Notes: generated by a model not told the origin, from the letters alone. A DNA stretch of 64,000 nt from Bacteroidales bacterium (GCA_049968755.1 JBMFQE010000001.1:75883-139882), one strand, 5' to 3'; positions 4,115 to 62,225 are shown, numbered from the stretch's first letter. Program-made: numbers and translations.

Positions 4115-4142
4115 GGCTTAATTTTTTATTGGTTTAACGAGT

Positions 4143-20052: not shown

Positions 20053-20535
20053 TTAAAGAAACTCCTGCAATATTTCCTTTACCGATTCGGGGGCTACGCG
20101 ACCAAATGTTTTGTCTCCTATCATTACTACGGGAGCCAATCCGCATGCGCCTACACAGCGTAAGCAGCTTAAGGAAAATTTACCATCGGGTGTGGTTTCT
20201 CCAATTTTTATTTTCAGTACGTTTTTAATTTCTTCCACCACCTTTTCTGCCCCTCTTACATAGCAGGCAGTTCCCATGCAAACCGATATGGGATACTGAC
20301 CTTTGGGCAGCATGGTAAAAAACGAGTAAAAGGTAACCACTCCATACACTTTTGCAACCGGAATACTGAGTTCGCTGGCTACAAGCTCCTGTACCTCAGC
20401 AGGCAAATAACCAAAGGTATGCTGAACTTTGTGCAGCACATTGATGAGTTCGCCCGGGTCATTGTTAAACTCCCTGCATATTTGCTTTATTTGTTCTACC
20501 TGATGGGGCTTTAATTCTATTTTTACCGTCGACAT
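20053..20535 (-). CDS. hydC: [FeFe]-hydrogenase HydC subunit (NuoE-like, thioredoxin-like [2Fe-2S])
   Basis: NuoE/HndA-type Cys pattern (CMGTACYVRG ... CLRCVGACGLAPV). This is the last gene of the hydrogenase operon. The first ATG is at 20535. Confidence 0.85.
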   Translation of the reverse strand: MSTVKIELKPHQVEQIKQICREFNNDPGELINVLHKVQHTFGYLPAEVQELVASELSIPVAKVYGVVTFYSFFTMLPKGQYPISVCMGTACYVRGAEKVVEEIKNVLKIKIGETTPDGKFSLSCLRCVGACGLAPVVMIGDKTFGRVAPESVKEILQEFL

Positions 20536-20578
20536 AGTTGTTTGTTTAATCGTTAACAATAATCAACTGAATATACCG

Positions 20579-22357: not shown

Positions 22358-22374
22358 AAAGTTTTACTTAAAAG

Positions 22375-24168
22375 TTATTGAACTAATACTGCATTAAATT
22401 TGCATTTTTCGACACAGGTACCACATTTTATGCAAATAAGCTGGTCGATTACGTGGGGCTTTTTCCGTTCGCCGGCAATAGCGTTTACCGGACAGGCCCG
22501 GGCGCAGGCGGTGCATCCTACGCATTGCTCAGGGTCGATGTAATAGTGTACCAGCGCCTTGCATTGTCCTGCCGGACACCGATGGTCGCGAACGTGCGCC
22601 AGATATTCATCGTAAAAGTGTTCCAGCGTCGATAGTACCGGGTTGGGCGATGAGCCTCCCAGCATGCAAAGGGATGTATCCTTGATTACCTGCCCTAAAT
22701 TTCGCAACAATGCCAGATCTTCCTCGGTAGCTTTACCCTCGGTAATTTTTGCCAGTATTTCGTCGAGCCGTTTATTGCCGATGCGACAAGGAGCACATTT
22801 GCCGCACGATTCCTCTACCGTAAAATCGAGGTAAAACTTGGCCATAGCTACCATACAATCGGTTTCGTCCATCACAATCATACCCCCCGAGCCCATCATT
22901 GAACCGGCTTCGGTAAGACTGTCGTAGTCGATAGGGGTGTCGAGATGTTTTTCGGTGAGGAAGCCACCGGAGGGACCACCAATTTGTACCGCTTTAAACT
23001 TTTTATTGTTCTTTATACCACCGCCAATATCATAAATTACGGTGCGTAATTTTGTACCCATGGGAACCTCAATGAGCCCCACATTGTTTATTTTTCCGGC
23101 CAGGGCAAATACCTTGGTACCCTTCGATTTCTCGGTACCAATGCTGGCAAACCATTCGGCACCATTGAGAATAATGGCCGGGACATTTGCAAACGTCTCA
23201 ACATTATTGACATTGGTAGGCTTGCCTTTATAGCCTTTTTCGGCGGGGAAGGGGGGTTTAAAGGTGGGTTCGCCCCGCATCCCCTCCATTGAATGAATCA
23301 AGGCAGTTTCTTCGCCACACACAAAGGCTCCGGCGCCATAGCGAAGGGTAATGTCGAAGTTAAAACCGGTACCCAAAATGTTATTGCCTAGCAGGCCGTA
23401 TTCACGCGCCTGAGTTATGGCAATCTTGAGTCGTTCGATGGCCAGCGGATATTCGGCACGAATATAGATAAGACCCTGTGAGGCTCCAATGCAGTATCCG
23501 CAGATGGCCATGGCTTCGAGCACCGAGTGGGGGTCACCTTCCAGAATAGAGCGATCCATAAAAGCCCCCGGATCGCCTTCGTCGGCATTACATACGACAT
23601 ACTTTTCGTCGCCCGGCACCTTGCTGGCTATTTCCCATTTAAGTCCGGTTGGGAAACCAGCGCCACCCCGTCCGCGTAATCCAGATCGTTTGATGATATC
23701 GATAACCTCTTGCGGTTTCATTTGCGTGAGAACCTTACCCAGTGCCTGATAGGCATTGCGGGCAATGGCTTCGTCAATATTTTCAGGATCGATAAATCCA
23801 CAGTTGCGCAAAGCTATTCGATACTGCTGCTGATAAAAATCCATCCTGCGCGATTCGGTAATTTTTTCACCCGTCGTCGGATCACTATATAGCAGGTTTT
23901 GCACGGGTCGGCCTTTGATAATGTGTTCCTCAACAATGGTTGTTGCATCGGCAGGTTTGACACTGACATAAAAAATATTGTCGGGCAAAACTTTTACGAT
24001 AGGTCCCTTTTCGCAAAATCCAAAGCAGCCGCTCATAACCACCTGTACCTCTTCACTTAGTCCGTGTTGTACCAGGGCCGATCGCAAATTGTGCGCAATC
24101 ATGTCACTTTCAGAGGTTTTGCATCCTGTTCCTCCGCAAACTAATATGTGCATTTTATAGTTAGCCAT
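22375..24168 (-). CDS. hydB: [FeFe]-hydrogenase HydB subunit (NuoF-like flavoprotein with Fe-S domains)
   Basis: GRGGAGFPTGLKW NADH/FMN motif, an N-terminal thioredoxin-like 2Fe-2S domain, the NuoF 4Fe-4S site (ESCGKCAPCR) and two C-terminal ferredoxin CxxCxxCxxxC motifs. Confidence 0.92.
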   Translation of the reverse strand: MANYKMHILVCGGTGCKTSESDMIAHNLRSALVQHGLSEEVQVVMSGCFGFCEKGPIVKVLPDNIFYVSVKPADATTIVEEHIIKGRPVQNLLYSDPTTGEKITESRRMDFYQQQYRIALRNCGFIDPENIDEAIARNAYQALGKVLTQMKPQEVIDIIKRSGLRGRGGAGFPTGLKWEIASKVPGDEKYVVCNADEGDPGAFMDRSILEGDPHSVLEAMAICGYCIGASQGLIYIRAEYPLAIERLKIAITQAREYGLLGNNILGTGFNFDITLRYGAGAFVCGEETALIHSMEGMRGEPTFKPPFPAEKGYKGKPTNVNNVETFANVPAIILNGAEWFASIGTEKSKGTKVFALAGKINNVGLIEVPMGTKLRTVIYDIGGGIKNNKKFKAVQIGGPSGGFLTEKHLDTPIDYDSLTEAGSMMGSGGMIVMDETDCMVAMAKFYLDFTVEESCGKCAPCRIGNKRLDEILAKITEGKATEEDLALLRNLGQVIKDTSLCMLGGSSPNPVLSTLEHFYDEYLAHVRDHRCPAGQCKALVHYYIDPEQCVGCTACARACPVNAIAGERKKPHVIDQLICIKCGTCVEKCKFNAVLVQ

Positions 24169-24188
24169 AACTAAATCCTCCTCCTTGC

Positions 24189-24581
24189 TTAACTCGGTTT
24201 TTTAAAGGTTTGTGGAATGATACCATCGACCAGATCACCGGCCTTCAGGTACTTTTCAATAATTTCGTCGGCCTTTGCCTTATTAACATGGCCAAAAACC
24301 ACCGGTTCTTTTCCGGGTAGCGTTACCTCAATGGTAGGTTCGGCATAGCAATAGCCCATGCATCCTGTTTGGGTTACAACGGCTGCAATGTTCCGTTTGG
24401 GAAGTTCATCGATAAAATAGTCCATTATTTCCTTGGCGCCCGAGGCAATTCCACAGGTTGCCATGGCTACCTTTACCTGAATGAGTTGCTCGGGATGTTC
24501 GCCTTTTTCGCGCAGTTCGAGCCTGGTTCGTAACTCATCCCTGAGCCTGATTAAATCGTCCAACGTTTTTACCTTTATCAT
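24189..24581 (-). CDS. Thioredoxin-like [2Fe-2S] ferredoxin (HndB-like)
   Basis: 130 aa, with the Cys pattern ATCGIASGA ... GCMGYCYAEP. Its start overlaps the upstream gene stop (ATGA). Confidence 0.75.
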   Translation of the reverse strand: MIKVKTLDDLIRLRDELRTRLELREKGEHPEQLIQVKVAMATCGIASGAKEIMDYFIDELPKRNIAAVVTQTGCMGYCYAEPTIEVTLPGKEPVVFGHVNKAKADEIIEKYLKAGDLVDGIIPQTFKKPS

Positions 24582-25144
24582 ATTCCTCCTGAGTTATGTT
24601 GTACATTACTAATGAAAAAGCATTCCATGTTTTCCGATAGGAAAGAAAACAAGTATTGACGTAATTCGCTTTGGAAAACTGGTATCCCATTGAAAATTTC
24701 CCTTATTTTTTTCGATTCAAAGGAAAAAGTGCGAAGTCCACTTCGTATGCAGACATAGAAGTTTATCTGTGGATTCACTGTTATTAGTGTACTTAACACA
24801 TCGGCAATGTTGCCTGGTGGGGGACAATCGATATGCCATAGGTTAAAAGCAAACGAAACGGTTGTTCCCCTATTGGCTTCAGAAACGATATGCAAAAATC
24901 CTCCTGTTTGCTCAACATGTTGCTTAAGCAGAGGAAGGCCCATACCTATCTTTCGGGTAGTACGGGATGTGTAAAAAGGATTTAGGACGTTGTTTAAGAT
25001 TTCTTGCGACATGCCTCGCCCGTTGTCAGCAATAGAGATGCGAAGTTGTTGATTCTTCTCCTCTATATCAATAGATATGCTTGAGGCATGAGCCTCTATA
25101 GCATTCTGAACAATATCGAGCAGGAAGAGTGCAATATTTTCCAT
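24578..25144 (-). CDS. Stand-alone GHKL/HATPase_c ATP-binding protein (no HisKA domain)
   Basis: N box DIVQNAIEAH, G1 DNGRGM and G2 GMGLPL, with no dimerisation/His domain. The first ATG is at 25144. Confidence 0.75.
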   Translation of the reverse strand: MENIALFLLDIVQNAIEAHASSISIDIEEKNQQLRISIADNGRGMSQEILNNVLNPFYTSRTTRKIGMGLPLLKQHVEQTGGFLHIVSEANRGTTVSFAFNLWHIDCPPPGNIADVLSTLITVNPQINFYVCIRSGLRTFSFESKKIREIFNGIPVFQSELRQYLFSFLSENMECFFISNVQHNSGGI

Positions 25145-25151
25145 GTTTGTT

Positions 25152-25892
25152 TTAATCAATCAAAACCATCCGTTCAAATTTCTTTCGCAGAGCCATTTTT
25201 ATTTCTTTAAAGTTTATTTTTTCAAGCAAAAAATGACTTGTATATTGACCAATACTGTGAAGGGTATGGGCATCGGAATTTTTAACAATGGTAAAGTGCG
25301 ATACATGTCCATTTTCCCTGAGAAACTGTACCAGCGACGTTTGGTTAAATATTTCAAGCGCATCGGCTTTAATATTTTCTGGAACGTACCCCAGCTGCGA
25401 TAGTAAGCTGTATTTAACACGATCGACATGGGCGGGGATGAAGATACCATCCATTGCATGAACGGTTTCTTCGATTTCTTCGTACCCTACCTTAAGTGGT
25501 ACTCCCAGATAATAATCGACCTGCTCCAGGACATTGTTTTTGGTATCGAGCACTGCCTGAATACCATGCAAGGCGGGATTGTATTTAATTTTTGGAATAT
25601 TTCGTTCGATAAAGTCCTGAAAACTTTTCAAATTTTCAGGCCCATCAAAAAAGGCCAGGCAATGAATTTCCTCCTTGCTACAGACCTCTGCACCCATGAG
25701 GGTAAATATGCCATATTCTTCGGCAATTTTTTTCACCATCAGGCATTGGAGGGTAGAGTTGTGATCGGTTATGCCGATAATTTTCAATCCTTTTGAAAAG
25801 GCTTTTTGGACGATGGCTACCGGGCTCATATCTACCTCTGCGCAGGGCGAGAGTACCGTGTGGATGTGTAGGTCGGCTTTTACGTTCAACAC
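25152..25892 (-). CDS. PHP-domain metal-dependent phosphoesterase
   Basis: DLHIHTVLSPC ... GITDHNS ... PAHVDR His/Asp pattern of the PHP fold, with a GTG start. Confidence 0.75.
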   Translation of the reverse strand: MLNVKADLHIHTVLSPCAEVDMSPVAIVQKAFSKGLKIIGITDHNSTLQCLMVKKIAEEYGIFTLMGAEVCSKEEIHCLAFFDGPENLKSFQDFIERNIPKIKYNPALHGIQAVLDTKNNVLEQVDYYLGVPLKVGYEEIEETVHAMDGIFIPAHVDRVKYSLLSQLGYVPENIKADALEIFNQTSLVQFLRENGHVSHFTIVKNSDAHTLHSIGQYTSHFLLEKINFKEIKMALRKKFERMVLID

Positions 25893-25974
25893 GATTTAAA
25901 ACTTTTTCTCTAATATACAAAAAATTAGTTGTCGTTGTATCTGCGCATCTCTGGAATTTTTAACTCTTTTTTTC

Positions 25975-26331
25975 TCATGCTTTCTGGGAGATTAGCTGAA
26001 AAATCTGTCCGGCCAGCTGAAATGTAGTCAATGAAGATACCAGAATTGGGATTTGATGAGTATTGCCGGCCTGGACAGTATCAGGGTCGGGTGTCCTACC
26101 TCCCGTAATTACGATAGCCGCCAGATTTTTAAGCGTGGCTACTGCAACAATATTTGGATGGGTATGAAGGGTCATCCATAGATGCAGTTCTTCGGCATGC
26201 CCAACCACATCGCTCAGTAGGTCCGACACATACACCCCACTAACCTTACGGTGCAGATTGTCGCATCCGCTCACGCACTTCAGCTGTAAACGGTCTGCAA
26301 GTTCTTTTACAGTTATTTCCATTTCCTTCAC
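25975..26331 (-). CDS. DRTGG-domain protein
   Basis: ~118 aa with a VITGGRTP core (DRTGG-like) and similarity to the 26765 paralogue. The GTG start overlaps the upstream stop; an alternative ATG is at 26322. Confidence 0.65.
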   Translation of the reverse strand: MKEMEITVKELADRLQLKCVSGCDNLHRKVSGVYVSDLLSDVVGHAEELHLWMTLHTHPNIVAVATLKNLAAIVITGGRTPDPDTVQAGNTHQIPILVSSLTTFQLAGQIFQLISQKA

Positions 26332-26762
26332 AGTATTTCAAAGAACGTATTTGTAAAAAATGTTAATATTATTTGTGTACCTTTATTAATGAGGCTGGAT
26401 ATCCACACGATGTCGGAATTTTTGATGATATTCGACAGGCCCAATCCAGCACCAAATCCTAGTCGTCGGATGTATTCGCTGGCTGTAGTAAAACCCTCGC
26501 GAAGCGCAAGCGGTACGTTTTCAATACCAGGTCCTTCATCATTGGCTATCACGACTACTTTGTCCGCATCGAAAAGAACGCTCACTGTACCCTTGAGTGC
26601 ATAAAGTATAATATTGGTTTCGACTTCAAAAATTGCCACTGCAATGCGTCGTGAATGTTTGGGAACCATGTTCCTCGCATTCATCACCTTTTTGATGGTA
26701 TTCGAAACGTAACCAATATTCTGGTAATCTCCTCCAGTTATTTTAAATTCAAACTTTTCCAT
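26328..26762 (-). CDS. Anti-sigma-factor-like Ser/Thr kinase (SpoIIAB/RsbW-type HATPase)
   Basis: 144 aa, with NDEGPGIEN and GFGAGLGLSNI G boxes. The size is typical of RsbW/SpoIIAB-like kinases. Confidence 0.7.
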   Translation of the reverse strand: MEKFEFKITGGDYQNIGYVSNTIKKVMNARNMVPKHSRRIAVAIFEVETNIILYALKGTVSVLFDADKVVVIANDEGPGIENVPLALREGFTTASEYIRRLGFGAGLGLSNIIKNSDIVWISSLINKGTQIILTFFTNTFFEIL

Positions 26763-26764
26763 TA

Positions 26765-27112
26765 TTAGTAAACCGGTCGAATACCTGCCTGGTACAGGAT
26801 TCCACTTGCTTTAAACATGGAACCTTTGTATTCCATAAGCACTATCTGGTTTTGCCGGGCAAGTTCGATCATTTCGGGCAGGGCTTTCTTTCCGCGAACC
26901 AGCAGGATAACTCCGACATCCATCACTACAGCAGCCCTTATGGTTTGGACGGTTGCCAGACCCGTAATGAGCAAGGTTTTGTTTTTGTCTATTTTAAGCA
27001 GATCACTCAACATGTCGGTTGCAAAGGCATATTTTACCTCTGTCGATAAAATTGCCTCATCGCCTGTAAGGATTTCGGCATCAAGGATATGTGCTATTTC
27101 TTTTATTTGCAT
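26765..27112 (-). CDS. DRTGG-domain protein
   Basis: LLITGLATVQTIRAA core. This is the first gene of the hydrogenase operon. The first ATG is at 27112; the listed 27133 is a TTG. Confidence 0.65.
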   Translation of the reverse strand: MQIKEIAHILDAEILTGDEAILSTEVKYAFATDMLSDLLKIDKNKTLLITGLATVQTIRAAVVMDVGVILLVRGKKALPEMIELARQNQIVLMEYKGSMFKASGILYQAGIRPVY

Positions 27113-51663: not shown

Positions 51664-51955
51664 GCAAAATTGATTGTTAACCCAAGTTCCATGTACAAAA
51701 GAATTCTTTTAGGCAAATATAAATTTTATGCGCATGTGCCATAATGGAAGGCATTATAATGAAGTTTCCAATTTTCAGAGTCATTGGTTTGTTACGAATG
51801 TATTAACCTTCTGCGTCGCTGCATTCAATATTGGAAAGATACAAATTGTAAGCAATTCACAACGCTTCGAGATACCGAAAATACTAAAGCTTGTTGAGAG
51901 CTGAAATAGTGATACCAAGGTTTGCACCAGCAATAAATTTCAAAACTACATTCAC

Positions 51956-52279
51956 TTAATCATTGGGGGTGACTAAAATTAGTTTTCTCAGATGTATACC
52001 AGGGGAGACTGTATTTTTTGAGATAATAGTTATTTCTTGTGTACCATGGTCAAGTGGACCCGATAAGGGATAAACGGTTACCCAATTCGGATAGGATGAT
52101 ATCTGAAATTTTCCTGTGGATCCAGAAAAAGGATTGATATACAACTTTTTTATCTCTTCTCCATTAAAAATCAAGCTGTCTGAAGAAAGGGAATATTCTC
52201 TCCGAGGAAATTCTTTCTCGCATCCTAAAATCGACACAATGGCTATTGTTATGAAAATTAGTTTTGTGAATTTCAGTTT
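51956..52279 (-). pseudogene. Small lipoprotein (BACON-like fold?) whose signal peptide has no in-frame ATG; possible 1-nt frameshift at the start or a non-ATG start
   Basis: The frame is open from 52279 and encodes K-L-K-F-T-K-L-I-F-I-T-I-A-I-V-S-I-L-G-C (a perfect lipobox). The only ATGs (52286, 52283) are in the +1 frame across an A4 run (ATGATGAAAACTG), so ATG-AAA-CTG would need one A fewer. The listed GTG start (52237) would remove the signal peptide. Confidence 0.5.
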
Positions 52280-52380
52280 TCATCATAAAAATTAATTTTT
52301 AAAGGTATGATGGAACACCCATGTTTGCAATTTTGTCACTATTGTATTTGCGTTCGCAGGAACATGGGTGTTTTATGATA
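52278..52380 (-). repeat. Copy A of the ~104-nt intergenic repeat family (inverted orientation)
   Basis: The reverse complement reads ...CATAAAACACCCATGTTCCTGCGAACGCAAATACAATAGTGACAAAATTGCAAACATGGGTGTTCCATCATACCTTTAAAAATTAATTTTTATGATGAAA. Confidence 0.9.
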
Positions 52381-52547
52381 AAAGCTGCACTAAAATATAA
52401 AATTTTTCTATTCACCAATGAAGCAAGTTTTTAATTCAGCGTTGAGGTTGTTGGCCTACTCTTTCAGGTTAACATCCGACTTCATAGGGGTCGAATTTGG
52501 GAACCTGCCACGCAATGGTTGGATGCTTTATGCATGCCAAAAAGTGC

Positions 52548-52555
52548 TAACTTTG
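52548..52555 (+). promoter_or_regulatory. -7 promoter box TAACTTTG in front of the men operon
   Basis: TAnnTTTG match 66 nt upstream of the ATG at 52621. Confidence 0.35.
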
Positions 52556-52620
52556 CAAAAATTAAACACTGCCATCAAACCAATGGTAATCATTTTTGTT
52601 AATGCTTAAGAAAGCATGTC

Positions 52621-53049
52621 ATGTTGACGACTGTTGAAGATTTAAATAAGCTGTGTGAGGGGACCTTAATTTCGCATTTATCGATACGATTTACCGAAGT
52701 ATCGGAAGAAAGGATAGTGGCAACCATGCCGGTAGATAGCCGTACCATTCAGCCCATGGGGATCCTCCATGGGGGCGCTATTCTGGCATTAATAGAAACC
52801 GTTGGGAGTGCTGGATCCTACCTTTTCATCGATGAAAGAAACTTCATGGCCGTGGGCATTGAGGTAAATGCTAATCATGTTGCGAATACCCAAACCAAAA
52901 GTGTTTATGCAGTAGGAAAAATACTCCACAAAGGTCGTCGTACGCATGTTTGGAGCGTTGAGGTATACGATAGCGATCATAAGCCTTTGTCGTTTGGCCG
53001 TGTAACCAATATGATTATTGAAAGTAATGAATGGAAGCATGAAGCATAA
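52621..53049 (+). CDS. Hotdog-fold (PaaI-type) thioesterase, probable 1,4-dihydroxy-2-naphthoyl-CoA hydrolase
   Basis: GILHGGAILALIETVGS motif, ~140 aa, first gene of the men cluster. Confidence 0.75.
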   Translation: MLTTVEDLNKLCEGTLISHLSIRFTEVSEERIVATMPVDSRTIQPMGILHGGAILALIETVGSAGSYLFIDERNFMAVGIEVNANHVANTQTKSVYAVGKILHKGRRTHVWSVEVYDSDHKPLSFGRVTNMIIESNEWKHEA

Positions 53050-54178
53050 TAAAAGCGCATGTATAGATGCAGCCAGCTGGGTATTGCACGAGCTTATGAA
53101 AAAAAACATTCCCATGGCTTGCTACCGGCTGCCGGGCGAGGACAGCTTTCAGGTAGTTTTGCAAACCAGTGGAGAACCCGTATTTATTCGATCCCATGCT
53201 GAACTAAATTATGAACAAGGCTTTGTAATTACTCCTTTCGTGCAAGAAGATGAGTTCAGAGCTTTTTTAATCCGTCCAGATATTTTTTTCATCTACCCAT
53301 CCTGTGAGCCTATTGCCGAGTTATCTGACATAATAAAAATTCCAACTGTTGATGAAATATGCTCTGATAACGACAGGACTCATGAAACTACTCGTGAGGA
53401 ATTTATAGATCAAATTAAAGTATCTCAGTCGTACCTACGAGAAGGGCAGCTACAAAAAATAGTTTTGTCGCGGATAGCTATTGAACCTCGGGAACCTACC
53501 CTTGCTTTAGAAGATATTTTTATGTCATTGTGTCATCTGTATCCCGAGGCTTTTGTTTATTTTTTCAGGCTACCTGATAGGGGATGCTGGATGGGTGCTA
53601 CGCCCGAGCCGTTTCTTGTGGTTTCAAATCAGAAAGGACTAATCGAATCGGTGGCTGGTACTCAATGGCTCAATGGACAGCAACCCGAAGAAATTGTTTG
53701 GGGAAGAAAAGAGCTGGAAGAGCAGGAAATCGTCACGCGTTTTATTGAAAATAGGCTTCACCTTTTGGGGATACAGGCTTATCAGAAAGAAGGACCAGCA
53801 ACAACCCGGGCTGGACGTCTGGCACATTTGCGCACTCGATTTACTTTCTCCGAAAAGCTGATAGAAAATCGTATAGGTGAGTTTATTCACACCTTTCATC
53901 CAACCCCATCGGTAGGAGGGTATCCTCAGCAAGAAGCCTGCCGGTTTATTGCTTCCCTTGAAAAACACAAGCGAGAATTTTACACGGGCCTTGTGGGTCC
54001 CCTGCGAATGAATGAAAAAACAGCACTTTTTGCTAATATTCGATGCATGAAGATAGTGCAAAATGCCTATTGGCTTTATCTGGGCGCAGGCATTACACAG
54101 GCCTCAGTTCCTGAGCTGGAATGGGAAGAAACAAATTTTAAAAAAACCACTATACTTGCTGCCGTAAAGCGCAACTAA
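53018..54178 (+). CDS. menF: Isochorismate synthase
   Basis: Chorismate-binding motifs (FHPTPSVGGYP, REFYTGLVG, GAGIT). An alternative ATG is at 53039. Confidence 0.88.
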   Translation: MKVMNGSMKHNKSACIDAASWVLHELMKKNIPMACYRLPGEDSFQVVLQTSGEPVFIRSHAELNYEQGFVITPFVQEDEFRAFLIRPDIFFIYPSCEPIAELSDIIKIPTVDEICSDNDRTHETTREEFIDQIKVSQSYLREGQLQKIVLSRIAIEPREPTLALEDIFMSLCHLYPEAFVYFFRLPDRGCWMGATPEPFLVVSNQKGLIESVAGTQWLNGQQPEEIVWGRKELEEQEIVTRFIENRLHLLGIQAYQKEGPATTRAGRLAHLRTRFTFSEKLIENRIGEFIHTFHPTPSVGGYPQQEACRFIASLEKHKREFYTGLVGPLRMNEKTALFANIRCMKIVQNAYWLYLGAGITQASVPELEWEETNFKKTTILAAVKRN

Positions 54179-54182
54179 AATA

Positions 54183-55871
54183 ATGAATATCGACAACAGT
54201 AACAGGCAGGGAATAAGCCATATACCCTATATATGCAAAGCGTTGGGTATAAAGCATGTGGTTCTTTGCCCGGGTTCAAGGAATGCTCCGCTTATCATGG
54301 CATTTGGCCGAGAGGAGGGTTTCGACTTGTATAGTATAACCGACGAACGTTCGGCAGGTTATTTTGCATTAGGTTTAGGCCAGGTGAGTCAGCAACCCGT
54401 TGCAGTGGTTTGCACCTCTGGTACAGCGGTACTCAATCTGGCACCAGCTGTTGCCGAAGCATATTACCAGTGCATTCCGCTCGTAGTATTGACAGCCGAC
54501 CGCCCCATTGAGCTTATCGATCAGGGCGATGGCCAAACCATCCACCAGCGAAATATTTTTGGTCCCCACGTTAAATTTAGCACCGAACTCCCAACGGATA
54601 CCTCGCTGGAAGCCGACCTGTGGCTCAGCGACCGTCTGGTATCACAGGCCATTGTTACGGCTGCCGAGCATCCTAAGGGACCCGTACACATTAACATCCC
54701 CCTGCGTGAACCTCTTTACACTCCGTTGCCGCAATTAGCCAATCCTAAGATTATCATCACAGCCCAACGAACATATTCGCTGGCAAATATCGACCACGAA
54801 TTAATAAGCCACACCTGGAATAAAGCTGAAAAAAAAATGATTGTGGTAGGAGGAATGGCTACGAAAAATATCCGTTTAAACGAATTGTTGGAAAAACTAT
54901 CCCAACGTTCAGATACCCTGGTGATTGCCGAAAACCTATCCAATGTTTCTCATCCCAATTTTATCTACGACCCCGAAAAATTTCTTGCAGCACTTCCTGC
55001 TTCGGCAAAGGCTCAACTACAACCTCATTTGCTAATTACTATGGGCAACAGCGTGGTGTCGAAACGGTTGAAACTTTTTTTACGCCAGTATCGTCCGCAA
55101 GAACACTGGTTGGTTAGTATGGACCATAGCTTTGTCGATACCTTCATGAGCATGACCCGTAATATTCCCATCCCTGCAGAATTGTTTGCTGAACTGCTTA
55201 CTACTCAAAACAAAGTACATAACATCGGCTATTCGTCCTATTTTCTTGAGCTTCATCAAAAAATTCAGGAACGAATGAAGGGGTTACTTTCGAGTCTTCC
55301 TTTTTCCGATCTAACGGTAGTAGACTTCGTGCTGAACCAACTGAAAGCAGGCACACATTTGCACCTTGCCAATAGCATGCCCGTAAGGTATGCGCAGCTA
55401 TTTGCTACACGTGCCGACATCAGCTATTTTTCGAATCGTGGCACCTCGGGTATCGATGGCTGTACCTCAACCTGTGTAGGAATGGCCGCTGTAATTGACA
55501 ACCCTGCTGTACTTATAACTGGCGACCTTGCATTCCTGTATGATTCCAATGCATTATGGAATAACTACCTTAAATCTAACCTCAAAATTATTGTACTAAA
55601 CAATGGCGGGGGAAATATTTTTCAGATGATCGATACCTCACCCGCAATAGAACCCGTGCTATCTTATTTTACTACGCCCCAGTCAGTGAAAATTAAGTCT
55701 CTTACTGAGGCCTATGGGTTACAATATTTTTATGCCGACAGCCTTAATCAGTTGTCGGATATATTCGATTCGTTTATCAACTTTGCAGCCCCTGCGGTGC
55801 TGGAGGTGAAAACCGACCCCAATATCAATGTGCTGGCATACAAACAATTAATTAAAAATATACAGTTATGA
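54183..55871 (+). CDS. menD: SEPHCHC synthase (ThDP-dependent)
   Basis: MenD-length ThDP enzyme with [15 protein letters not shown] and [12 protein letters not shown]...NNGGGNIF motifs. Confidence 0.92.
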
Positions 55872-56689
55872 GTACCCGTAATTGGACACCCATTAAAACG
55901 TATGAGGAGATAAAATTTGAGTTTTTTGAGGGGATAGCCAAGATCACCATCAACCGGCCGCGGTATCGCAATGCATTTACCCCTCAGACCGTTGCTGAGA
56001 TGTGCGATGCCATGCACATATGCCGTGAGAATTCTGATATTTTTGTTGTAGTATTGACTGGCGAGGGCGACAAGGCATTTTGTGCAGGTGGCGACCAGAA
56101 TTATAAGGGCCGTGCAGGATACGTCGATAAAAATGGGGTTCCACGGCTCAATGTACTTGACCTGCAGAAAATGATCCGTTATTTGCCCAAGCCGGTCATT
56201 GCCATGGTGAATGGTTATGCCATCGGAGGTGGCCATGTATTGCATGTAGTGTGCGATTTGACCATTGCCTCAGAAAATGCCCGCTTTGGACAAACAGGCC
56301 CCAAAGTGGGAAGCTTCGATGCAGGTTTTGGCTCTTCGTATCTGGCCCGCATTGTGGGACAAAAACGCGCCCGCGAATTCTGGTTTCTCTGCGAACAATA
56401 TACTGCTCAAGAAGCCTACCAGATGGGACTGGTCAACAAGGTAGTACCCCTCGAACAGCTGGAAGATGTAACGGTGGAATGGTGCAAAAAAATTATGAAG
56501 AAAAGTCCCTTAGCACTTCGCATGATTAAAGCTGGCTTGAATGCCGAGCTCGATGGTCAGGCAGGTATTCAGGAGCTGGCTGGCAATGCTACCATGCTCT
56601 ACTATATGACCGATGAAGCCCAGGAGGGTAAGAATGCCTTTCTCGAAAAAAGAGACCCTGATTTTACCAAATTTCCAAGGTTACCCTAA
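55868..56689 (+). CDS. menB: 1,4-dihydroxy-2-naphthoyl-CoA synthase
   Basis: Crotonase fold ([20 protein letters not shown]). The start overlaps the menD stop (ATGA). Confidence 0.95.
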
Positions 56690-56701
56690 ATCGTTTCTAT
56701 T

Positions 56702-57607
56702 ATGCAGCCTAATAAGTTAAAAAGCTGGCTCATTGCAGCGCGACTTAGGACGCTCCCACTGGCCTTTGCAGGTCCATTTGCTGGAAGCTGTATGGCCTAC
56801 GCAGGTCAGGGCTTTCGCTGGACAGTGGCCATTGGCTCTATCGTTACTACTCTTTTGCTCCAGGTACTCTCGAACTTTGCCAACGATTATGGTGACTTTG
56901 TTAAGGGGACCGATCGCAACCGAAAGGGGCCTCCTCGGGCATTGCAAAGCAACCTGATTACGGTTTCAGAAATGAAATTTGCCATTTATGTAGTGAGTAT
57001 GTTGGCGCTTGTTTCTGGTGGTATACTCGTATTCTTTTGGGCGGCTCATCTGCCGCTATGGTTGCGGACCCTTTTCTTTCTTTTAGGACTATCGGCCATT
57101 TACGCTGCTGTGAAATATACTGTTGGCGAAAAACCCTATGGCTACCACGGATGGGGCGATGCTGTGGTATTCCTGTTTTTTGGACTGGTTAGTACAATGG
57201 GAACATTCGTTCTTCATACAGGCATTTTCCATCCAATTATTATGTTCCCTGCTATTAGCATGGGTTTGCTAAGCACAGCCGTACTGAATATCAACAACAT
57301 CAGAGACTATAACGAGGATATGCAGCACAATAAAAAAACCATAGCAGTATTTCTCGGCTTGCATAAAGCCAAAATCTATCACCTCGTTCTTATTGCAATT
57401 GCCTGGGTATTGCTTTTGTTTCCTGTCATCCTCAATTATCACAGTCCCTGGCAACTTTTATTTGTTGTCATACTGCCATTTTTTGCCAGAAGCGTTTTAC
57501 AGGTATTCCGGCATTCCGATGCCAGCGAGCTCAATTACGAGCTCAGGCGGCTGGCTCTTTCAACCTTTCTGCTCGCGCTGCTCTGGGGTGTTGGCCAAAT
57601 AATCTGA
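56702..57607 (+). CDS. menA: 1,4-dihydroxy-2-naphthoate polyprenyltransferase
   Basis: UbiA-family Asp-rich motif NFANDYGDFVKGTD and ~8 TM segments. Confidence 0.92.
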   Translation: MQPNKLKSWLIAARLRTLPLAFAGPFAGSCMAYAGQGFRWTVAIGSIVTTLLLQVLSNFANDYGDFVKGTDRNRKGPPRALQSNLITVSEMKFAIYVVSMLALVSGGILVFFWAAHLPLWLRTLFFLLGLSAIYAAVKYTVGEKPYGYHGWGDAVVFLFFGLVSTMGTFVLHTGIFHPIIMFPAISMGLLSTAVLNINNIRDYNEDMQHNKKTIAVFLGLHKAKIYHLVLIAIAWVLLLFPVILNYHSPWQLLFVVILPFFARSVLQVFRHSDASELNYELRRLALSTFLLALLWGVGQII

Positions 57608-57711
57608 CTATGAAACACCCATGTTCCTGCAAACGCAAACACAATAGTGATAAAATTGCGAACATGGCAGTTACATCATACCTTTAAAAAATTAATTTTA
57701 TTATGATGAAA
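57608..57711 (+). repeat. Copy B of the ~104-nt intergenic repeat family
   Basis: Starts on the nucleotide after the menA TGA. Its terminal ATGATGAAA is the menC start codon. The right hairpin arm is degenerate (GAACATGGCAGTTACA). Confidence 0.9.
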
Positions 57712-58749
57712 CTTAGCTATGTTAAGAAAAAATTTTATTTTAACTTCCCTGCATATACCTCAAGGGGTACTATGCTTGAAAGAGATTGCTGGTTTTTAAT
57801 CTTGCATAGTACATCCGATATATTCGTGGGTGAATGTGCTCCTTTGCACGGGTTAAGCAGGGATAATATCGAAGAAATACCCCAACTACTTGATGACATT
57901 TGCCAAAATTTCAATCATCAAACGCATTTTCCAGCGTTTGATGAGCAACTTTTTCCCTCAGTTGCATTTGCCGTCGAATCGCTGAAATTACAAATTGAAC
58001 ACCAGCAGTGTGGTCTGCATTTTCCATCAAGCTTTACGGAGGGGAGAGAAGGGATTGCCATTAACGGACTTATTTGGGCGGGAACCTTCGAACAGGTACT
58101 TGCCCAGGTCGATGAAAAGGTGAGGATGGGCTTCCCTTGCATCAAAATGAAAATTGGAGCATTATCCTTCGACGAAGAGCTTAGCCTGATCCAATCGGTT
58201 CGTAACCATTATCCACATGTCGAAATACGCCTCGATGCCAATGGTGCCTTTACTCCTGCCGATGCGCTGTCGAAAATTGAGCAGCTGGCTAAATTTAACA
58301 TTCATTCACTCGAACAACCCATAGCAACCGGACAATGGACTGCAATGAAACGTATTTGCGCCAATTCCCCCATCCCCATTGCTCTTGACGAAGAGCTTAT
58401 CCCCATTGTTTCTTTGCAGGAACAACATCAAATGCTCGATTATATTCGACCAACCTATATCATTTTAAAGCCTAGTTTGTTAGGCGGTTTCTCTCGTACC
58501 GAGCAGTGGATTCAAACAGCCAATAGCATGCAAATTGGCTGGTGGGTTACCTCCGCACTGGAAAGTAATGTAGGACTCAATGCCATTGCCCAGTGGACCT
58601 ACCGTGTAGCTCCTCATAGGGTGCATGGGCTGGGTACCGGTAGAATTTACAAAAATAACATTACCTCGCCGCTTCGATTACAGCAGGATAAAATTTATTA
58701 CCAACCCCAATATCTCTGGGATTTTAGTTCTTTGTTCCTAAACGAATAA
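57703..58749 (+). CDS. menC: o-Succinylbenzoate synthase (enolase superfamily)
   Basis: KMKIG, RLDANGAF, LEQP and DEEL catalytic motifs, in men operon context. Confidence 0.9.
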   Translation: MMKLSYVKKKFYFNFPAYTSRGTMLERDCWFLILHSTSDIFVGECAPLHGLSRDNIEEIPQLLDDICQNFNHQTHFPAFDEQLFPSVAFAVESLKLQIEHQQCGLHFPSSFTEGREGIAINGLIWAGTFEQVLAQVDEKVRMGFPCIKMKIGALSFDEELSLIQSVRNHYPHVEIRLDANGAFTPADALSKIEQLAKFNIHSLEQPIATGQWTAMKRICANSPIPIALDEELIPIVSLQEQHQMLDYIRPTYIILKPSLLGGFSRTEQWIQTANSMQIGWWVTSALESNVGLNAIAQWTYRVAPHRVHGLGTGRIYKNNITSPLRLQQDKIYYQPQYLWDFSSLFLNE

Positions 58750-58753
58750 TGTG

Positions 58754-59809
58754 ATGCTCAAGCTCAACGGTCGTAAATATACCAGAATAGAGTTGCAGCA
58801 ACTTTGCTTGCGCTACCGCGATCAGGATGACTGGCTGGGCGATATTTTTAGGTTCATTGACGAGTGGCTCGATCAGAGCACCGACTCCATACAGGTGCAA
58901 ACAAGCGGATCAACAGGGGTGCCTAAAATCATTCCTTTAAAAAAGCAACACCTCATCCAGTCGGCTATCCGAACACAAGCATTCTTCAATCTCACGTCAG
59001 ATGATAAAGCGTTGCTGTGCTTACCTGCCCGATATATAGCTGGCAAGATGATGATTGTTCGCGCCTTCGTTGTGGGTTACGACCTGATTACCGTTGCTCC
59101 CTCGGCCAATCCTTTTGAACAGTTGGCACAGCCTATAGATTTTACTGCCATTACTCCTTATCAACTTTCCAGCTCGCTTGAGACCCTAAGGGGGTTGAAC
59201 ATTCGAAACGTTATAGTTGGAGGGGCTGAGGTTCCTCCCCAGCTGGAGGCCAGACTGCAACAATTACCCTCAGCCATTTATGCAACCTACGGCATGACCG
59301 AGACAGGATCGCATGTTGCCCTACGCCCCATCAACGGAAACAATGCCTCGCCCTTGTACGAAGCCCTACCCGATGTAACTTTCAGTGTTGACCGGCACAT
59401 GCGTCTCATTATTCAGGCCGATTACCTTACCTATTCCCCCCTCCAAACCAATGATGTGGTTGAGCTGATAGATAGTAAGCATTTTCGCTGGTTAGGCCGT
59501 TACGACCATGTAATCAATTCGGGTGGCATAAAAATTTTCCCCGAAGAGGTGGAAAGAATAATTGCACCCTTTATTCCTTATTCATTCTTTATTGCTTCTC
59601 AGCCCGATGAGGTATTTTCCGAAGTCGTCTGTCTCTACATTGAACGTTCATCACCATTGTCTGAAACCGAACAACAGGCTTTGCTACAGCAAATAAAACC
59701 CCTGTTAACATCCTACCAGCTTCCCAAAAGAATTGTCGTTTTGCCCAGATTTATATTTTCGGCTAACGGTAAGCTGTTGCGTAAAGAAACCCTATTAAAA
59801 TATCAATAA
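58754..59809 (+). CDS. menE: o-Succinylbenzoate--CoA ligase (short Bacteroidota form)
   Basis: AMP-binding motifs TSGSTGVPK, YGMTE and GRYDHVINSGGIKIFPEEVE. Confidence 0.88.
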   Translation: MLKLNGRKYTRIELQQLCLRYRDQDDWLGDIFRFIDEWLDQSTDSIQVQTSGSTGVPKIIPLKKQHLIQSAIRTQAFFNLTSDDKALLCLPARYIAGKMMIVRAFVVGYDLITVAPSANPFEQLAQPIDFTAITPYQLSSSLETLRGLNIRNVIVGGAEVPPQLEARLQQLPSAIYATYGMTETGSHVALRPINGNNASPLYEALPDVTFSVDRHMRLIIQADYLTYSPLQTNDVVELIDSKHFRWLGRYDHVINSGGIKIFPEEVERIIAPFIPYSFFIASQPDEVFSEVVCLYIERSSPLSETEQQALLQQIKPLLTSYQLPKRIVVLPRFIFSANGKLLRKETLLKYQ

Positions 59810-59945
59810 TACCTTTTATAGGATTTATCTTGCGCCTGTTTTTTCGAATGATTAATGATTCAAGTTTGTTGGAAAAAATCAATATTTTTTGTGATAACCA
59901 TTGTTTATTAATATATTTTTTGCGCGTTGCGGCTAAAGCAAAATA

Positions 59946-59970
59946 GGAACAAAAATTTTTCACTCCCCGT
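59946..59970 (+). promoter_or_regulatory. Candidate ECF-type promoter (GGAAC-N17-CGT)
   Basis: GGAAC at 59946-59950 and CGTA at 59968-59971, 64 nt upstream of the sigma factor start. ECF sigma genes are often autoregulated from GGAAC/CGT-type promoters. Confidence 0.3.
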
Positions 59971-60033
59971 AGGATTTTTTGTAAATTGTCATCTTAATAA
60001 ACAGAAAAAGGACACGCACTAAATCTGTTTTCT

Positions 60034-60630
60034 GTGAATGCTGACGTTGAATCAAAAAAAGCTTTGGCCGACGAAGACATTGTAACGTTTGTACTGGAAG
60101 GTCATACCGATCTATTCAGAATACTGGTCGATCGTTACAAGGATAAGGTTTTTCATACGGGTATGGGTTTTTTGCACAACCGACACGATGCCGAAGATTT
60201 GGTGCAGGAGGTGTTTCTGCAGGTTTATTCTTCCTTGTCGGGTTTTCAACATCGATCAGTTTTTTCGACCTGGCTCTATCGTATTACGGTTAACGCGGCG
60301 TTGAATATGCTACGAAAGAAATCGGGTAAGTCGTTTATAAATTTTGCTAATCTGCACAGGGATCGACCCGATACGTTTCATTCCAATAGCGAAAATCCTG
60401 AACAGAAGATGATACAAGAGGAGGGGAAAGCATGGCTTAGGGAATCCATCACTCGCTTACCCGAAAAGCAGCGGGCAGCCCTTGTGCTTAGCTATTATAA
60501 CGATTTGCCGCAGAAAGAGATTGCCGAAATACTGGGCACCACAGAGGGGGCTGTTGAATCGCTTCTGCAGCGTGCTAAAGAAAATTTAAGAAAAAATATG
60601 GGGATTACCCGTAGGAAAAATCAATTGTAG
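60034..60630 (+). CDS. ECF-type RNA polymerase sigma-70 factor
   Basis: Region 2 (DAEDLVQEVFLQVY...WLYRITVNAALN) and region 4 (QKEIAEILGTTEGAVESLLQRAKENL). GTG start. Confidence 0.85.
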   Translation: MNADVESKKALADEDIVTFVLEGHTDLFRILVDRYKDKVFHTGMGFLHNRHDAEDLVQEVFLQVYSSLSGFQHRSVFSTWLYRITVNAALNMLRKKSGKSFINFANLHRDRPDTFHSNSENPEQKMIQEEGKAWLRESITRLPEKQRAALVLSYYNDLPQKEIAEILGTTEGAVESLLQRAKENLRKNMGITRRKNQL

Positions 60631-60653
60631 GTTTCTTAATAGAAAAATAGCTT

Positions 60654-61109
60654 ATGAACTGCGAAAGTTGCCAAAGATTGCTGTTTACGATAGGGTTTCA
60701 TCGCCTTTCGGACACGCTGAAACAGGAAGTATTGAACCACGTTGATGGTTGCAGCAAATGTGCTGCCTTTTATCAACTCGAACATCAGTTAATCGAGCTT
60801 GTGGAGGAGGAAAAACGATTGCAACCCACCACCGACATTGTCGACCGGGTAATGGATCGTATTGTTGAAAAAGAGCATAAGTCTTTTGCGCATAGGCAGG
60901 GGGTTAGTTTATCGTGGACTGCCGTATGGCGGGCCGTTGCTGCCGGAGTACTGATACTGTTATCCGTGGCAGTAGGTGTTTATATGGGAAACCTCAATCG
61001 CAAAACATTGCAAAATCCGCAGGAATTGACTTTGCTGGATGATGCCCAACTTGAATCATTTTATGTGTACTATGAAACACCCATGTTCCTGCGAACGCAA
61101 ACACAATAG
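60654..61109 (+). CDS. Anti-sigma factor (zf-HC2-like N-terminus, single TM)
   Basis: CESC...H...C..C N-terminal motif and a TM segment AVAAGVLILLSVAVGVYM, immediately downstream of the sigma gene. The last 13 codons lie inside repeat copy C. Confidence 0.7.
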   Translation: MNCESCQRLLFTIGFHRLSDTLKQEVLNHVDGCSKCAAFYQLEHQLIELVEEEKRLQPTTDIVDRVMDRIVEKEHKSFAHRQGVSLSWTAVWRAVAAGVLILLSVAVGVYMGNLNRKTLQNPQELTLLDDAQLESFYVYYETPMFLRTQTQ

Positions 61110-61172
61110 TGATAAAATTGCGAACATGGGTGTTCCATCCTACCTTTAAAAATTAATTTTATTATGATGAAA
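61070..61172 (+). repeat. Copy C of the ~104-nt intergenic repeat family
   Basis: CTATGAAACACCCATGTTCCTGCGAACGCAAACACAATAGTGATAAAATTGCGAACATGGGTGTTCCATCCTACCTTTAAAAATTAATTTTATTATGATGAAA. The arms at 61076-61088 and 61122-61134 are perfect complements (13 bp). Confidence 0.9.
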
Positions 61173-61186
61173 AATAAATTTTTTCC

Positions 61187-61735
61187 ATGGATCTGGTTAA
61201 AAAGCAAAAATGGCTGACGTGGGCTGTAATAGTCCTTGCCGTGATGAATATTTCGACCTGGGGCACGCTTATATACCATCATTATTTTACCAGCGAATTA
61301 ACCCCAGCTTATGTACAGGGTACCCAAGATAATATCAGTCTTAGCGGTCGGTTTTTCAGGCAACAGCTACAGTGGGATGAAGAGCAGATGAATCAGTTCA
61401 GACGCATACACCCCCATTTTCGGCAGCAGGTACAAGATATTCTTGCCCACATGAATCGACATAAATATGCTATGCTCAATATCATGAGATCCGACTCGTG
61501 CGATACGCTTCGACTCAATGCACTATCCGATTCCATTGGTTACTGGCATAGCCAGCTTAAGCGGGCTACCTATTGCTATTATTTTGAGCTTAAAAAAATT
61601 TGCAGGCCCGACCAGCGGTCGCAGCTCGACCAAATATTTACCCGGCTGCTGACAAATGATTCGCAAGCCAGCATGGGTGGAGGACACCGTCGGCGCATGC
61701 AACACCCCATGCATCAACAGGGAAATTCTTATTAA
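61187..61735 (+). CDS. Membrane-anchored periplasmic Spy/CpxP/ZraP-like (heavy-metal-sensor family) protein
   Basis: N-terminal anchor, helical Q/R-rich repeats, and a His-rich tail GGGHRRRMQHPMHQQ. It is in the third-gene position typical of sigma/anti-sigma/Spy-like trios. Confidence 0.6.
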   Translation: MDLVKKQKWLTWAVIVLAVMNISTWGTLIYHHYFTSELTPAYVQGTQDNISLSGRFFRQQLQWDEEQMNQFRRIHPHFRQQVQDILAHMNRHKYAMLNIMRSDSCDTLRLNALSDSIGYWHSQLKRATYCYYFELKKICRPDQRSQLDQIFTRLLTNDSQASMGGGHRRRMQHPMHQQGNSY

Positions 61736-61759
61736 GGTTAAATAATTAAAACAGTAATG

Positions 61760-61862
61760 CTATGAAACACCCATGTTCCTGCGAACGCAAACACAATAGT
61801 GACAAAAGTTCCAACATGGGTGTTCCATCATACCTTAAAAATTAAATTTTATAATTATGAAA
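61760..61862 (+). repeat. Copy D of the ~104-nt intergenic repeat family
   Basis: It has the same 5' 50 nt as copies B and C, arms at 61766-61777 and 61813-61824 (12 bp), and ends in the ATG of the 61857 gene. Confidence 0.9.
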
Positions 61863-62168
61863 AGATTAGTATTTGTAATGGGATTAAGTGCCATGCTTTC
61901 GACAGCATGGCTGAGTGCACAAACTTCAGGCAATAGTGTTTCACAGCCCGTAGGGCAGGGTAGAGGAGCATATGTCGATGCCAACAAAAATGGCGTATGC
62001 GACAACTACGAGGTCAGGCAGGCAACGGTGGCTGGTAAACGTGGGCAGAGAAATAACCCAGGTGGCTACGGCCGTGGATGGGGCGGTTCGCAACGCGGAA
62101 AAAATTTTGTGGATGCCAACAAAAATGGCGTGTGCGACAATTATGAGAATAGAATGCAGCAGAAGTAA
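61857..62168 (+). CDS. Small secreted Gly/Arg-rich protein with two EF-hand-like loops
   Basis: Signal peptide (LSTAWLSAQ) and a duplicated motif VDANKNGVCDNYE that fits the 12-residue EF-hand loop pattern D-x-N-x-N-G-x-x-D-x-x-E. Confidence 0.6.
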   Translation: MKRLVFVMGLSAMLSTAWLSAQTSGNSVSQPVGQGRGAYVDANKNGVCDNYEVRQATVAGKRGQRNNPGGYGRGWGGSQRGKNFVDANKNGVCDNYENRMQQK

Positions 62169-62225
62169 CGGTTAAAAAGGGGGAACCAATATCATTGTAT
62201 GGTTTAAATTTTTGTCATAAGGCTT

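Follow-up and report, generated by a model that had tools for sequence, protein, structure and literature searches.

A repeat of uncultured Bacteroidales inserted directly after ATGAA at gene starts, probably a non-coding, non-autonomous mobile family

Introduction

To our knowledge, the literature on small mobile repeats is rich for Proteobacteria and Firmicutes and scarce for Bacteroidota. The present work concerns a repeat of about 95 nt, four copies of which (A to D) are located in a stretch of 64,000 nt from an uncultured Bacteroidales genome (GCA_049968755.1, JBMFQE010000001.1:75883-139882; hereafter the window, with positions counted from its first nucleotide). An earlier reading of the window, made without any comparison (the sequence-only reading), proposed a dispersed terminator/promoter cassette or a regulator-bound module, spreading by recombination or by an unrecognised route of mobilisation. 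Here, copies B, C, and D are proved to be insertions relative to related genomes, each placed directly after the word ATGAA. The repeat is probably a non-autonomous, non-coding mobile family of Bacteroidales, which rebuilds the start codon it enters and would be mobilised as single-stranded DNA (ssDNA).

The closest described systems are the non-autonomous derivatives of the insertion sequences (IS) IS200/IS605 and the repetitive extragenic palindromic (REP) and REPIN repeats, that is, the systems of Y1 HUH enzymes and RAYTs. Like the Bacteroidales element, they are short, non-coding, and multi-copy, they form a DNA hairpin, and they lack terminal inverted repeats. They insert in one orientation at a sequence of 4-5 nt, this target is complementary to a stretch at the foot of the hairpin, and each genome carries its own subfamily. 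Their enzyme is supplied in trans, as may also be the case for the present element. In comparison with IS200/IS605, which have hairpins at both ends, the element consists of one long left hairpin with a 30-nt tail and a weak, different right helix; its left site overlaps the stem, and both end sites are identical to the target. In comparison with REPs, it lacks the GT[AG]G tag. The REPs of the Bacteroidetes RAYT subclass 2.6 are GC-rich GCTAG hairpins (PMC6006769), and the arm sequence of the element is absent from the REP tables of that study.

Other families share single features with the element. In Neisseria, the Correia elements (CREE), mobile repeats of about 100-150 nt which form hairpins, are located beside genes and in operons, where they are co-transcribed and can alter expression. 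They differ in having 26-bp terminal inverted repeats and a TA duplication, in being confined to Neisseria, and in neither targeting nor rebuilding start codons. The ERIC/IRU repeats of enterobacteria are imperfect palindromes of about 100-130 nt, located within operons, with orientation-dependent effects on mRNA and a mobilisation mechanism that is equally unsettled; their sequence and host phylum are different, no defined pentanucleotide target is known for them, and they have no start-codon or leader module. The Rickettsia palindromic elements (RPEs) are small palindromes tolerated in expressed genes through an open frame. In contrast to the element, which sits 5' of the gene and usually ends its short frame before the new ATG, RPEs lie inside the coding sequence and are translated into the protein. 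Finally, the attC sites of integron cassettes are imperfect palindromes which fold as single strands, with a crossover within one arm and AAC...GTT stem ends. They have pairs of R and L boxes with a spacer, extrahelical bases, an arrayed organisation, and an integrase; the element has none of these, and its target is a dispersed 5-nt word. Its copies lie singly among housekeeping genes.

Results

Empty and Filled Insertion Sites

A 52-kb Logan contig (L082), reached through a homologue of the anti-sigma protein of the window, has the same gene order with 81-91% nucleotide identity. The blastn blocks between the two (window positions 52526-57603, 57706-61076, 61168-61767, and 61856-62150) break exactly at copies B, C, and D, and the corresponding junctions of L082 are tight and empty. 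At site B, menA of L082 overlaps menC (...GATATGAATCTTAGC), the empty site being TATGAATC; the same site is also empty in a more distant metagenome-assembled genome (MAG), where it reads TTATGCAG. At site C, the anti-sigma gene of L082 ends with ...TACAGTGAATAA, 12 nt before the next gene, and in the window copy C has replaced its last two codons, so that the open reading frame (ORF) 60654-61109 now ends in 12 residues encoded by the element. At site D, the last gene of L082 starts at the empty GCTATGAAAAGATT.

Each of the three sites of the window has 95-96 additional nt (about 96 at B), and inserts of 93-96 nt are found overall. The insert is bounded by a direct repeat of ATGAA(A), which takes the form ATGAAAC in copy B, ATGAA A in C, and TATGAAA in D. 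Breaks of the alignment exactly at the elements, together with these flanking repeats, indicate insertions rather than a promoter duplicated in place. The sequence-only reading had named one outcome as contrary to its idea, namely that these were the sole copies and arose by segmental duplication together with their flanks. In fact the flanks are not duplicated, and about 35 further members occur elsewhere.

A fourth pair comes from another lineage. The kaiC|kaiB junction is empty in four contigs (L133-L136) and filled in six (L084, L085, L087, L092, L115, and L116). For instance, L133 reads CCT-ATGAAAC-CCAGAAAAGG, and L087 reads CCG-ATGAAAC-element-ATGAAAC-CAAAGAAAGG. All four empty/filled pairs (B, C, D, and kaiC|kaiB) place the insertion directly after ATGAA, this word precedes every copy, and 5-7 nt are shared around every copy as a direct repeat.

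In the case of copy A, L082 has an unrelated 74-aa gene at the site, and the sole other homologue of the site belongs to the same species as the window. A second strain (GCA_049968955.1, 99.4-99.7% identical) also carries copies A, C, and D.

The Family in Metagenomes

The exact 23-nt pattern of arm plus loop gave no match in 186,000 GTDB species-representative genomes and none in the JGI metagenomes. The loop is therefore lineage-specific, and the metagenomes were therefore scanned with the two arms only, separated by a free spacer of 20-45 nt. Thirty-nine contigs matched, and about 35 of them showed the full architecture with differing flanks and diverged loops; thus, the element is not private to its source genome. 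In outline, the architecture is ATGAA, a 12-bp arm, a loop, a 12-bp arm, CATCATACCTT, an A/T tail, and ATGATGAA. More fully, it reads nATGAA-ACACCCATGTT, a loop of 28-36 nt containing ..AAACACAAACA..AATAGTAATAAAAT.., AACATGGGTGTT-x-CATCATACCTT, the A/T tail, and TTATTATG-ATGAA. At positions free of the search pattern, the mean pairwise identity is 0.97 for the left ATGA, 0.78 for CATCATACCTT, 0.86 for the final ATGATGAAA, and 0.59 for the loop.

The copies of the window are each other's nearest relatives, with a loop identity of 0.86-0.97 against at most 0.75 to any other member. Similarly, metagenome Ga0123519 contains five copies of another subfamily on five different contigs. Both cases show amplification within genomes. 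The copy at the PFK locus is degenerate, with one decayed arm and two nested inserts, and its loop holds a 24-nt insert.

A small GC-rich hairpin (e.g., CTCCCGCTTTGCGGGAC) is nested just after the right arm in some members (L098 at about 1690-1809, oriented; L103 at 2179-2305; L125 at 4141-4287). These hairpins may represent a second, REP-like repeat family landing in the element. Contigs were also found which start inside copy C (L001, 1-73) or at the right end of the element (L123 and L124, 1-30 in both). Such assembly breaks are suggestive of repetitiveness; the fragmented MAG also breaks elsewhere.

No described family was recognised. At the gathering threshold, Rfam returned two tRNAs only for the window, and at E<=10 over positions 52000-62200 the matches over the elements were just rliE (22 bits against a threshold of 90) and IS009 (16 against 117), which are noise. 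Among viral contigs, the pair of arms and the right arm with the tail gave no match, and the left 16-mer gave 34 unrelated coding matches. Plasmids and phages searched by blastn contained no copies, and a full-text literature search with the arm sequences returned unrelated human primers alone. The family is apparently undescribed and present in many uncultured Bacteroidales. In this respect the sequence-only reading, which had seen a dispersed cassette with an unrecognised route of mobilisation and of no RNA family or REP/MITE type known to it (MITE, miniature inverted-repeat transposable element), was borne out.

Structure of the Element

Each of the four window copies forms a long hairpin when folded (z between -3.8 and -5.5). 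Its helix P1 consists of the pair of arms extended by ATG/CAT; there is one compensatory case (L108), and the arms are conserved by sequence and not by covariation. In the second helix, P2, the CATCATA just 3' of the right arm pairs with TATGATG, which contains the start codons. In an anchor-based count, 198 of 217 cells of P2 are paired against 188 +/- 2.3 in shuffles (a value reached by 2 of 2000), and its covariation score on a MAFFT alignment is 0.103 against 0.061 +/- 0.014 (8 of 500 shuffles). Double changes occur in L094 (C-G to T-A), L112 (T-A to G-C), and L105 (three consecutive pairs).

The termini of the element, ACACCCATG... and ...TTATTATG(ATGAA), are not inverted repeats of each other, in agreement with the earlier observation that terminal inverted repeats are lacking. 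About 30 nt separate the right arm from the right end, and the inverted repeat is thus internal and offset. When the right end is joined to the left end, a continuous stem of 7 + 12 bp is produced with one central mismatch at the ATGAA boundary (z of about -5). Beside the stem, a TTCCAT is complementary to both the left and the right ATGAA.

The Four Copies of the Window

The positions of the copies and their parts are given in table 1. The four copies lie where the sequence-only reading had placed them. Their 37-nt core has four matches in the window at <=1 mismatch, with 0 expected (100 shuffles), and an nhmmer profile built from them recovers the four with E-values of 1e-31 to 1e-35 and no fifth copy elsewhere in the 64 kb. 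When measured, pairwise identity amounts to 86-97% for the loop and 85-93% for the whole element, slightly below the 90-95% estimated by eye. Copies A, C, and D have perfect arms (AACACCCATGTT/AACATGGGTGTT); in B, as had been reported, pairing is impaired and not compensated, the right arm carrying three changes.

The limits of the unit needed a correction, since the bounding direct repeat ATGAA had been missed. The statement that the left edge abuts or overlaps the upstream stop codon holds for B, which abuts the menA stop, and for C, where the anti-sigma ORF runs into the element; D lies 26 nt beyond the stop. As was proposed, ATGATGAAA is the start of menC in B and ATGAAAA starts the gene at 61857 in D.

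The octamer TACCTTTA is found in A, B, and C, and D has it one T short (TACCTTAA). It does occur 23 nt before the ATG at 15769, as noticed earlier, yet the word is common in the window, where it is found 17 times and shuffles predict about 3. Several of its sites (e.g., 15739, 20026, and 33816) are shortly upstream of genes, and the excess may reflect a -7 box variant which this lineage tolerates, or a peculiarity of composition.

Table 1. Copies of the element in the window and their parts
Feature	Position	Strand	Remark
Copy A, whole element with both flanking repeats	52279..52376	-	
Copy B, whole element, preceded by the menA stop codon (57605-57607) and followed by menC	57610..57710	+	
Copy C, whole element within the last codons of the anti-sigma gene	61072..61171	+	
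Copy D, whole element, at the start codon of the gene (61857-62168) encoding the 103-aa secreted protein	61762..61861	+	
Copy A, left repeat	52372..52376	-	ATAAA in the window; ATGAA in strain GCA_049968955.1
Copy A, right ATGAA	52279..52283	-	extra A after ATGAA
Copy B, left ATGAA, former menC start codon and target	57610..57614	+	empty-site comparison
Copy B, right ATGAA, rebuilt start codon (menC reads MMK from 57703)	57706..57710	+	
Copy C, left ATGAA	61072..61076	+	empty-site comparison
Copy C, right ATGAA, unused as start; downstream gene starts at 61187	61167..61171	+	
Copy D, left ATGAA	61762..61766	+	empty-site comparison
Copy D, right ATGAA, start codon of the 103-aa gene	61857..61861	+	
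Copy A, left arm	52361..52372	-	
Copy A, right arm	52314..52325	-	
Copy B, left hairpin arm AACACCCATGTT	57614..57625	+	
Copy B, right arm, decayed to AACATGGCAGTT	57661..57672	+	
Copy C, left arm	61076..61087	+	
Copy C, right arm AACATGGGTGTT	61123..61134	+	
Copy D, left arm	61766..61777	+	
Copy D, right arm	61813..61824	+	
Copy C, 5' half of the second helix, CATCCTA (family consensus CATCATA)	61136..61142	+	complementary to TATGATG 61163-61169

Genes at the Element and Translation

A downstream ORF of at least 40 aa begins at the last ATG of the element in about 28 of the 31 non-redundant members. The genes concerned are unrelated (PFK, DUF302, KaiB, GH43, GH28, an M13 peptidase, a phytase, and a ceramidase-like gene, and in the window menC, Metal_resist, and others). 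Many of them encode signal peptides, as is expected when the target is ATG AAA, the usual MK... start. The ATG AAA start is the commonest gene start in these AT-rich genomes; in the window, 4 of the 222 ATGAA sites are occupied.

Ahead of the regenerated ATG, an A is found at -3 (94%), -6 (90%), -12 (94%), and -13 (68%), positions at which A has been reported as a positive determinant of translation in Bacteroidetes (PMC6847099). The frame opened by the old ATG is free of stops through the hairpin in 27 of 31 members, the other two frames in 1 and 10. Counting non-redundant members, it is open in 17 of 20 against 5.1 expected from loop shuffles. Its stop codon mostly lies within the tail, 12-25 nt upstream of the new ATG; in 7 of 31 members it runs on in frame into the gene.

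The N-terminus MKHPC of this frame is fixed by the arm, and the remainder is read in either of two frames (..NMGVPSYL or ..TWVFHHT) according to the length of the loop; the reverse ORF has mostly 5-7 codons. A small protein or leader peptide (forward MKHPC..., reverse MMEHPC...) was considered and rejected, as the frame varies from member to member. No peptide is conserved, and the element is therefore non-coding.

Behind copy A, the lipoprotein-like ORF (51956-52286, minus strand) encodes a perfect lipoprotein signal (KLKFTKLIFITIAIVSILGC). A run of four A, also present in an independent assembly (L137), shifts this ORF by one base against the ATGATG of the element, and its stop codon differs between the two strains (93 vs. 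117 aa). The ORF is probably a pseudogene and illustrates a harmful or imprecise insertion.

Several annotation artefacts arise from the element, i.e., MMK- instead of MK- starts, ORFs of 41 aa, an N-terminal extension MLHLTIKINFVR (P0012), and a C-terminal tail YETPMFLRTQTQ.

Genomic Context

The host is an uncultured Bacteroidales, and its nearest species representative shows 65% MenD identity. The region of the copies begins with ffh (minus strand) and the lipoprotein-like ORF (minus strand) with copy A ahead of it. The men operon follows, with a thioesterase gene, menF, menD, menB, menA, copy B, menC, and menE. Next is an operon of an extracytoplasmic function (ECF) sigma factor, composed of the sigma and anti-sigma genes, copy C, the Metal_resist gene, copy D, and the gene of a 103-aa secreted repeat protein, and then phoH.

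The spacer between ffh and the thioesterase gene is not homologous to that of L082. In the window it spans 820 nt (51706-52525, with the lipoprotein-like ORF and copy A), and in L082 371 nt (1615-1985, with an unrelated 74-aa ORF). This spacer is a small variable island. A direct repeat, VDANKNGVCDNYE, occurs twice within the 103-aa protein behind copy D (61973-62012 and 62108-62147, 90% identical in DNA); the protein matches no Pfam family.

Outside this region, five diverged repeats spaced by 138-141 nt are located at 2183-2778, in the gene of a 1035-aa protein with a type IX secretion C-terminal sorting domain. The 3' end of a TonB-like gene (15276-15533) is about 70% identical to the DNA between a 106-aa gene and phoH in L082 (11537-11794), and the window has no such TonB stretch between the position of the 106-aa gene and phoH; the C-terminal segment of TonB may have been relocated or duplicated. 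A cluster of HydABC-type [FeFe] hydrogenase genes, followed by small HATPase and DRTGG genes, occupies 20053-27112 and fits a strictly anaerobic, fermentative Bacteroidales.

Discussion

A Probable Mobile Family Inserting at Start Codons

The observations are most readily explained by a mobile element which inserts in one orientation directly 3' of ATGAA and whose own 3' end, ...TTATTATGATGAA, leaves ATGAA on both sides. Upon entry at a start codon (ATG AAx), an in-frame ATG would be restored to the gene, preceded by an A/U-rich leader with the translation-initiation signals of Bacteroidetes, and the old start codon would open a short frame, usually through the hairpin, stopping just before the new ATG. 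With a regenerated ATG and such a leader, insertions would be tolerated in operons and before genes, and these are the insertions observed.

The enzyme would be encoded elsewhere and act in trans, most likely on ssDNA. Asymmetric ends, a strict 5-nt target, fixed orientation, a hairpin, a stretch complementary to the target, and the lack of a travelling enzyme gene all point to this type of mobilisation. The form in which the right end is joined to the left would be one 20-bp hairpin stem with its central mismatch at the ATGAA crossover. The TTCCAT by the foot of the hairpin could pair with the target and with both end sites, which suggests an HUH enzyme in the manner of IS200/IS605 or REP/RAYT, working with a single hairpin and a guide.

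Several points weigh against this explanation. No transposase or recombinase was found by Pfam in the 40 ORFs scanned in the window (the sequence-only reading had also seen no transposase), nor among the Pfam marks of the L082 orthologues, which cover the men/ECF/ffh/phoH genes. The same 40 ORFs, all within 64 kb of the genome, include no Y1 gene. No gene recurs beside the copies across the about 35 loci, and neither an autonomous version nor a viral copy came out of the searches of viral contigs, plasmids, and phages. The left site overlaps the foot of the stem, unlike in IS200/IS605, where hairpins at both ends have the cleavage outside. The invariance of the arms is in part an ascertainment effect of the search pattern, and decayed arms do exist (copy B and the PFK locus). 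The count of copies in the window covers 64 kb of a 507-kb contig. Support for P2 is modest, with uncompensated mismatches in several lineages. Under a stricter null, which takes the stop-poor loop motif as given, the openness of the old frame has p of about 0.06. Copy A has its downstream ORF out of frame, so an insertion is not always harmless. Lastly, as ATGAA is invariably the same word, it may be the target plus an identical end of the element rather than a duplication, and the sequences are compatible both with a 5-bp duplication by a DDE enzyme and with insertion 3' of the target by an element with an identical 3' end.

Alternative Explanations

According to the first alternative, the element is a promoter/5' untranslated region/terminator cassette, in which the hairpin terminates the upstream transcript and TACCTTTA is the -7 box driving the downstream genes, an activity for which the copies would be retained. 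This is unlikely, although several features agree with it. The octamer differs by one base from TACCTTTG, which is promoter-like upstream of two other genes of the window; a TTG lies 20 nt upstream of the box in the window copies; the octamer is over-represented and also precedes another ATG, as described above; and the element always faces a gene. However, the box reads TACCTTwA in the 31 members and the final G is present in none, whereas the -7 element of Bacteroidetes sigma-A promoters is TAHHTTTG with a final G that is near-invariant in Flavobacterium johnsoniae (PMC6847099). Boxes of the form TAnnTTTG that do have the G (TAACTTTG and TACCTTTG) are upstream of other genes of the window. 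The -33 TTG of the window copies is not conserved in the family, and TAnnTTTH occurs 377 times in the window, so that the match is not specific. Moreover, most insertions are inside operons (menA|menC, kaiC|kaiB, and anti-sigma|Metal_resist), where a new promoter is not needed. As for termination, the hairpin has a 35-nt loop and no U tract, it is followed by CCAUCAUACC, and it was not flagged by a terminator scan. The promoter and terminator roles suggested at first are thus not supported, and the unrelated functions of the downstream genes argue against a shared regulator and with it the operator role. Promoter activity would be at most a side effect, and weak activity is possible.

A vertically inherited, structured cis-regulatory RNA, i.e., a leader, thermometer, or translational operator which sequesters the start codon, has still less to recommend it. 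The strength of the hairpin, the pairing of P2 with the start codons and its compensatory changes, the conservation of the motifs over many lineages, and the retention of the kaiC|kaiB element in six diverged loci would all suit an RNA. On the other hand, presence and absence differ between close relatives at four sites, near-identical copies precede unrelated genes within one genome, the conservation of the arms is one of sequence and not of covariation, and no Rfam match was obtained at E<=10. Such an RNA is possible solely as a secondary, co-opted role.

A classical MITE, derived by internal deletion from a DDE-type IS and producing a 5-bp target-site duplication with a strong preference for ATGAA, is a poor candidate. 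The element is indeed small, non-coding, and multi-copy, with a direct repeat at every copy, and its 12-bp arms are inverted repeats, as IS ends joined by a deletion would be. Yet the mobile unit extends about 30 nt past the right arm to termini that are not inverted repeats, insertion is strictly oriented on an asymmetric target, and no IS with these ends is found in plasmids, phages, or viral contigs.

Least probable, and hardly to be expected, is a minimal cassette whose mobilisation would require a tyrosine recombinase working on a folded single strand, as with integron attC sites or CTX phage, and whose crossover would lie in the ATGAA of the 20-bp stem. The continuous stem of the junction form with a central mismatch at the crossover, the stem ends ...AAC / GTT... 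reminiscent of attC R boxes, and the displacement of part of the stem to the other end, as in integron cassettes, led to this proposal. The 5-6 conserved nt of the target are too short for recombinase-binding arms, an unpaired central spacer and extrahelical bases are missing (the stem is an uninterrupted 12-bp duplex with one mismatch), there is no array, and neither intI nor any other integrase is among the 40 ORFs scanned in the window. RYYYAAC/GTTRRRY is matched in the AAC/GTT triplets alone.

Three further candidates were rejected: a diversity-generating retroelement repeat (the copies do not differ specifically at adenines, and a reverse transcriptase is absent), an invertible promoter (the 35-bp spacer is too short, and inversion would leave TTTG 28 nt from the box), and a hammerhead-like core, UGAUGA...GAAA (GAAA is absent after the stem).

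Significance for Bacteroidales

If the repeat is a mobile element placed after ATGAA, it is likely a new substrate for an enzyme acting on ssDNA. Its 5-nt target coincides with ATG AAA, its orientation is fixed, and the rebuilt start has a near-ideal leader free of a Shine-Dalgarno sequence. The insertions therefore constitute a natural experiment on translation initiation in Bacteroidetes. They also show that genes can be retained after an operon junction has been opened by 95 nt, as at menA|menC and kaiC|kaiB, and they are a warning for annotation and assembly, which may meet MMK- starts, spurious ORFs of 25-40 aa, C-terminal tails, and contig breaks.

More tentatively, and with some doubt on our part, the element could stand for a new class of hairpin-guided ssDNA elements homing to start codons, with TTCCAT as the guide and a circle folded into the 20-bp stem. 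It would be translationally transparent, by virtue of the regenerated ATG, the A at -3, -6, -12, and -13, the open old frame, and termination followed by re-initiation. If this were true, the element would colonise operons and genes of secreted proteins of Bacteroidales, and it could be a portable module of translation initiation.

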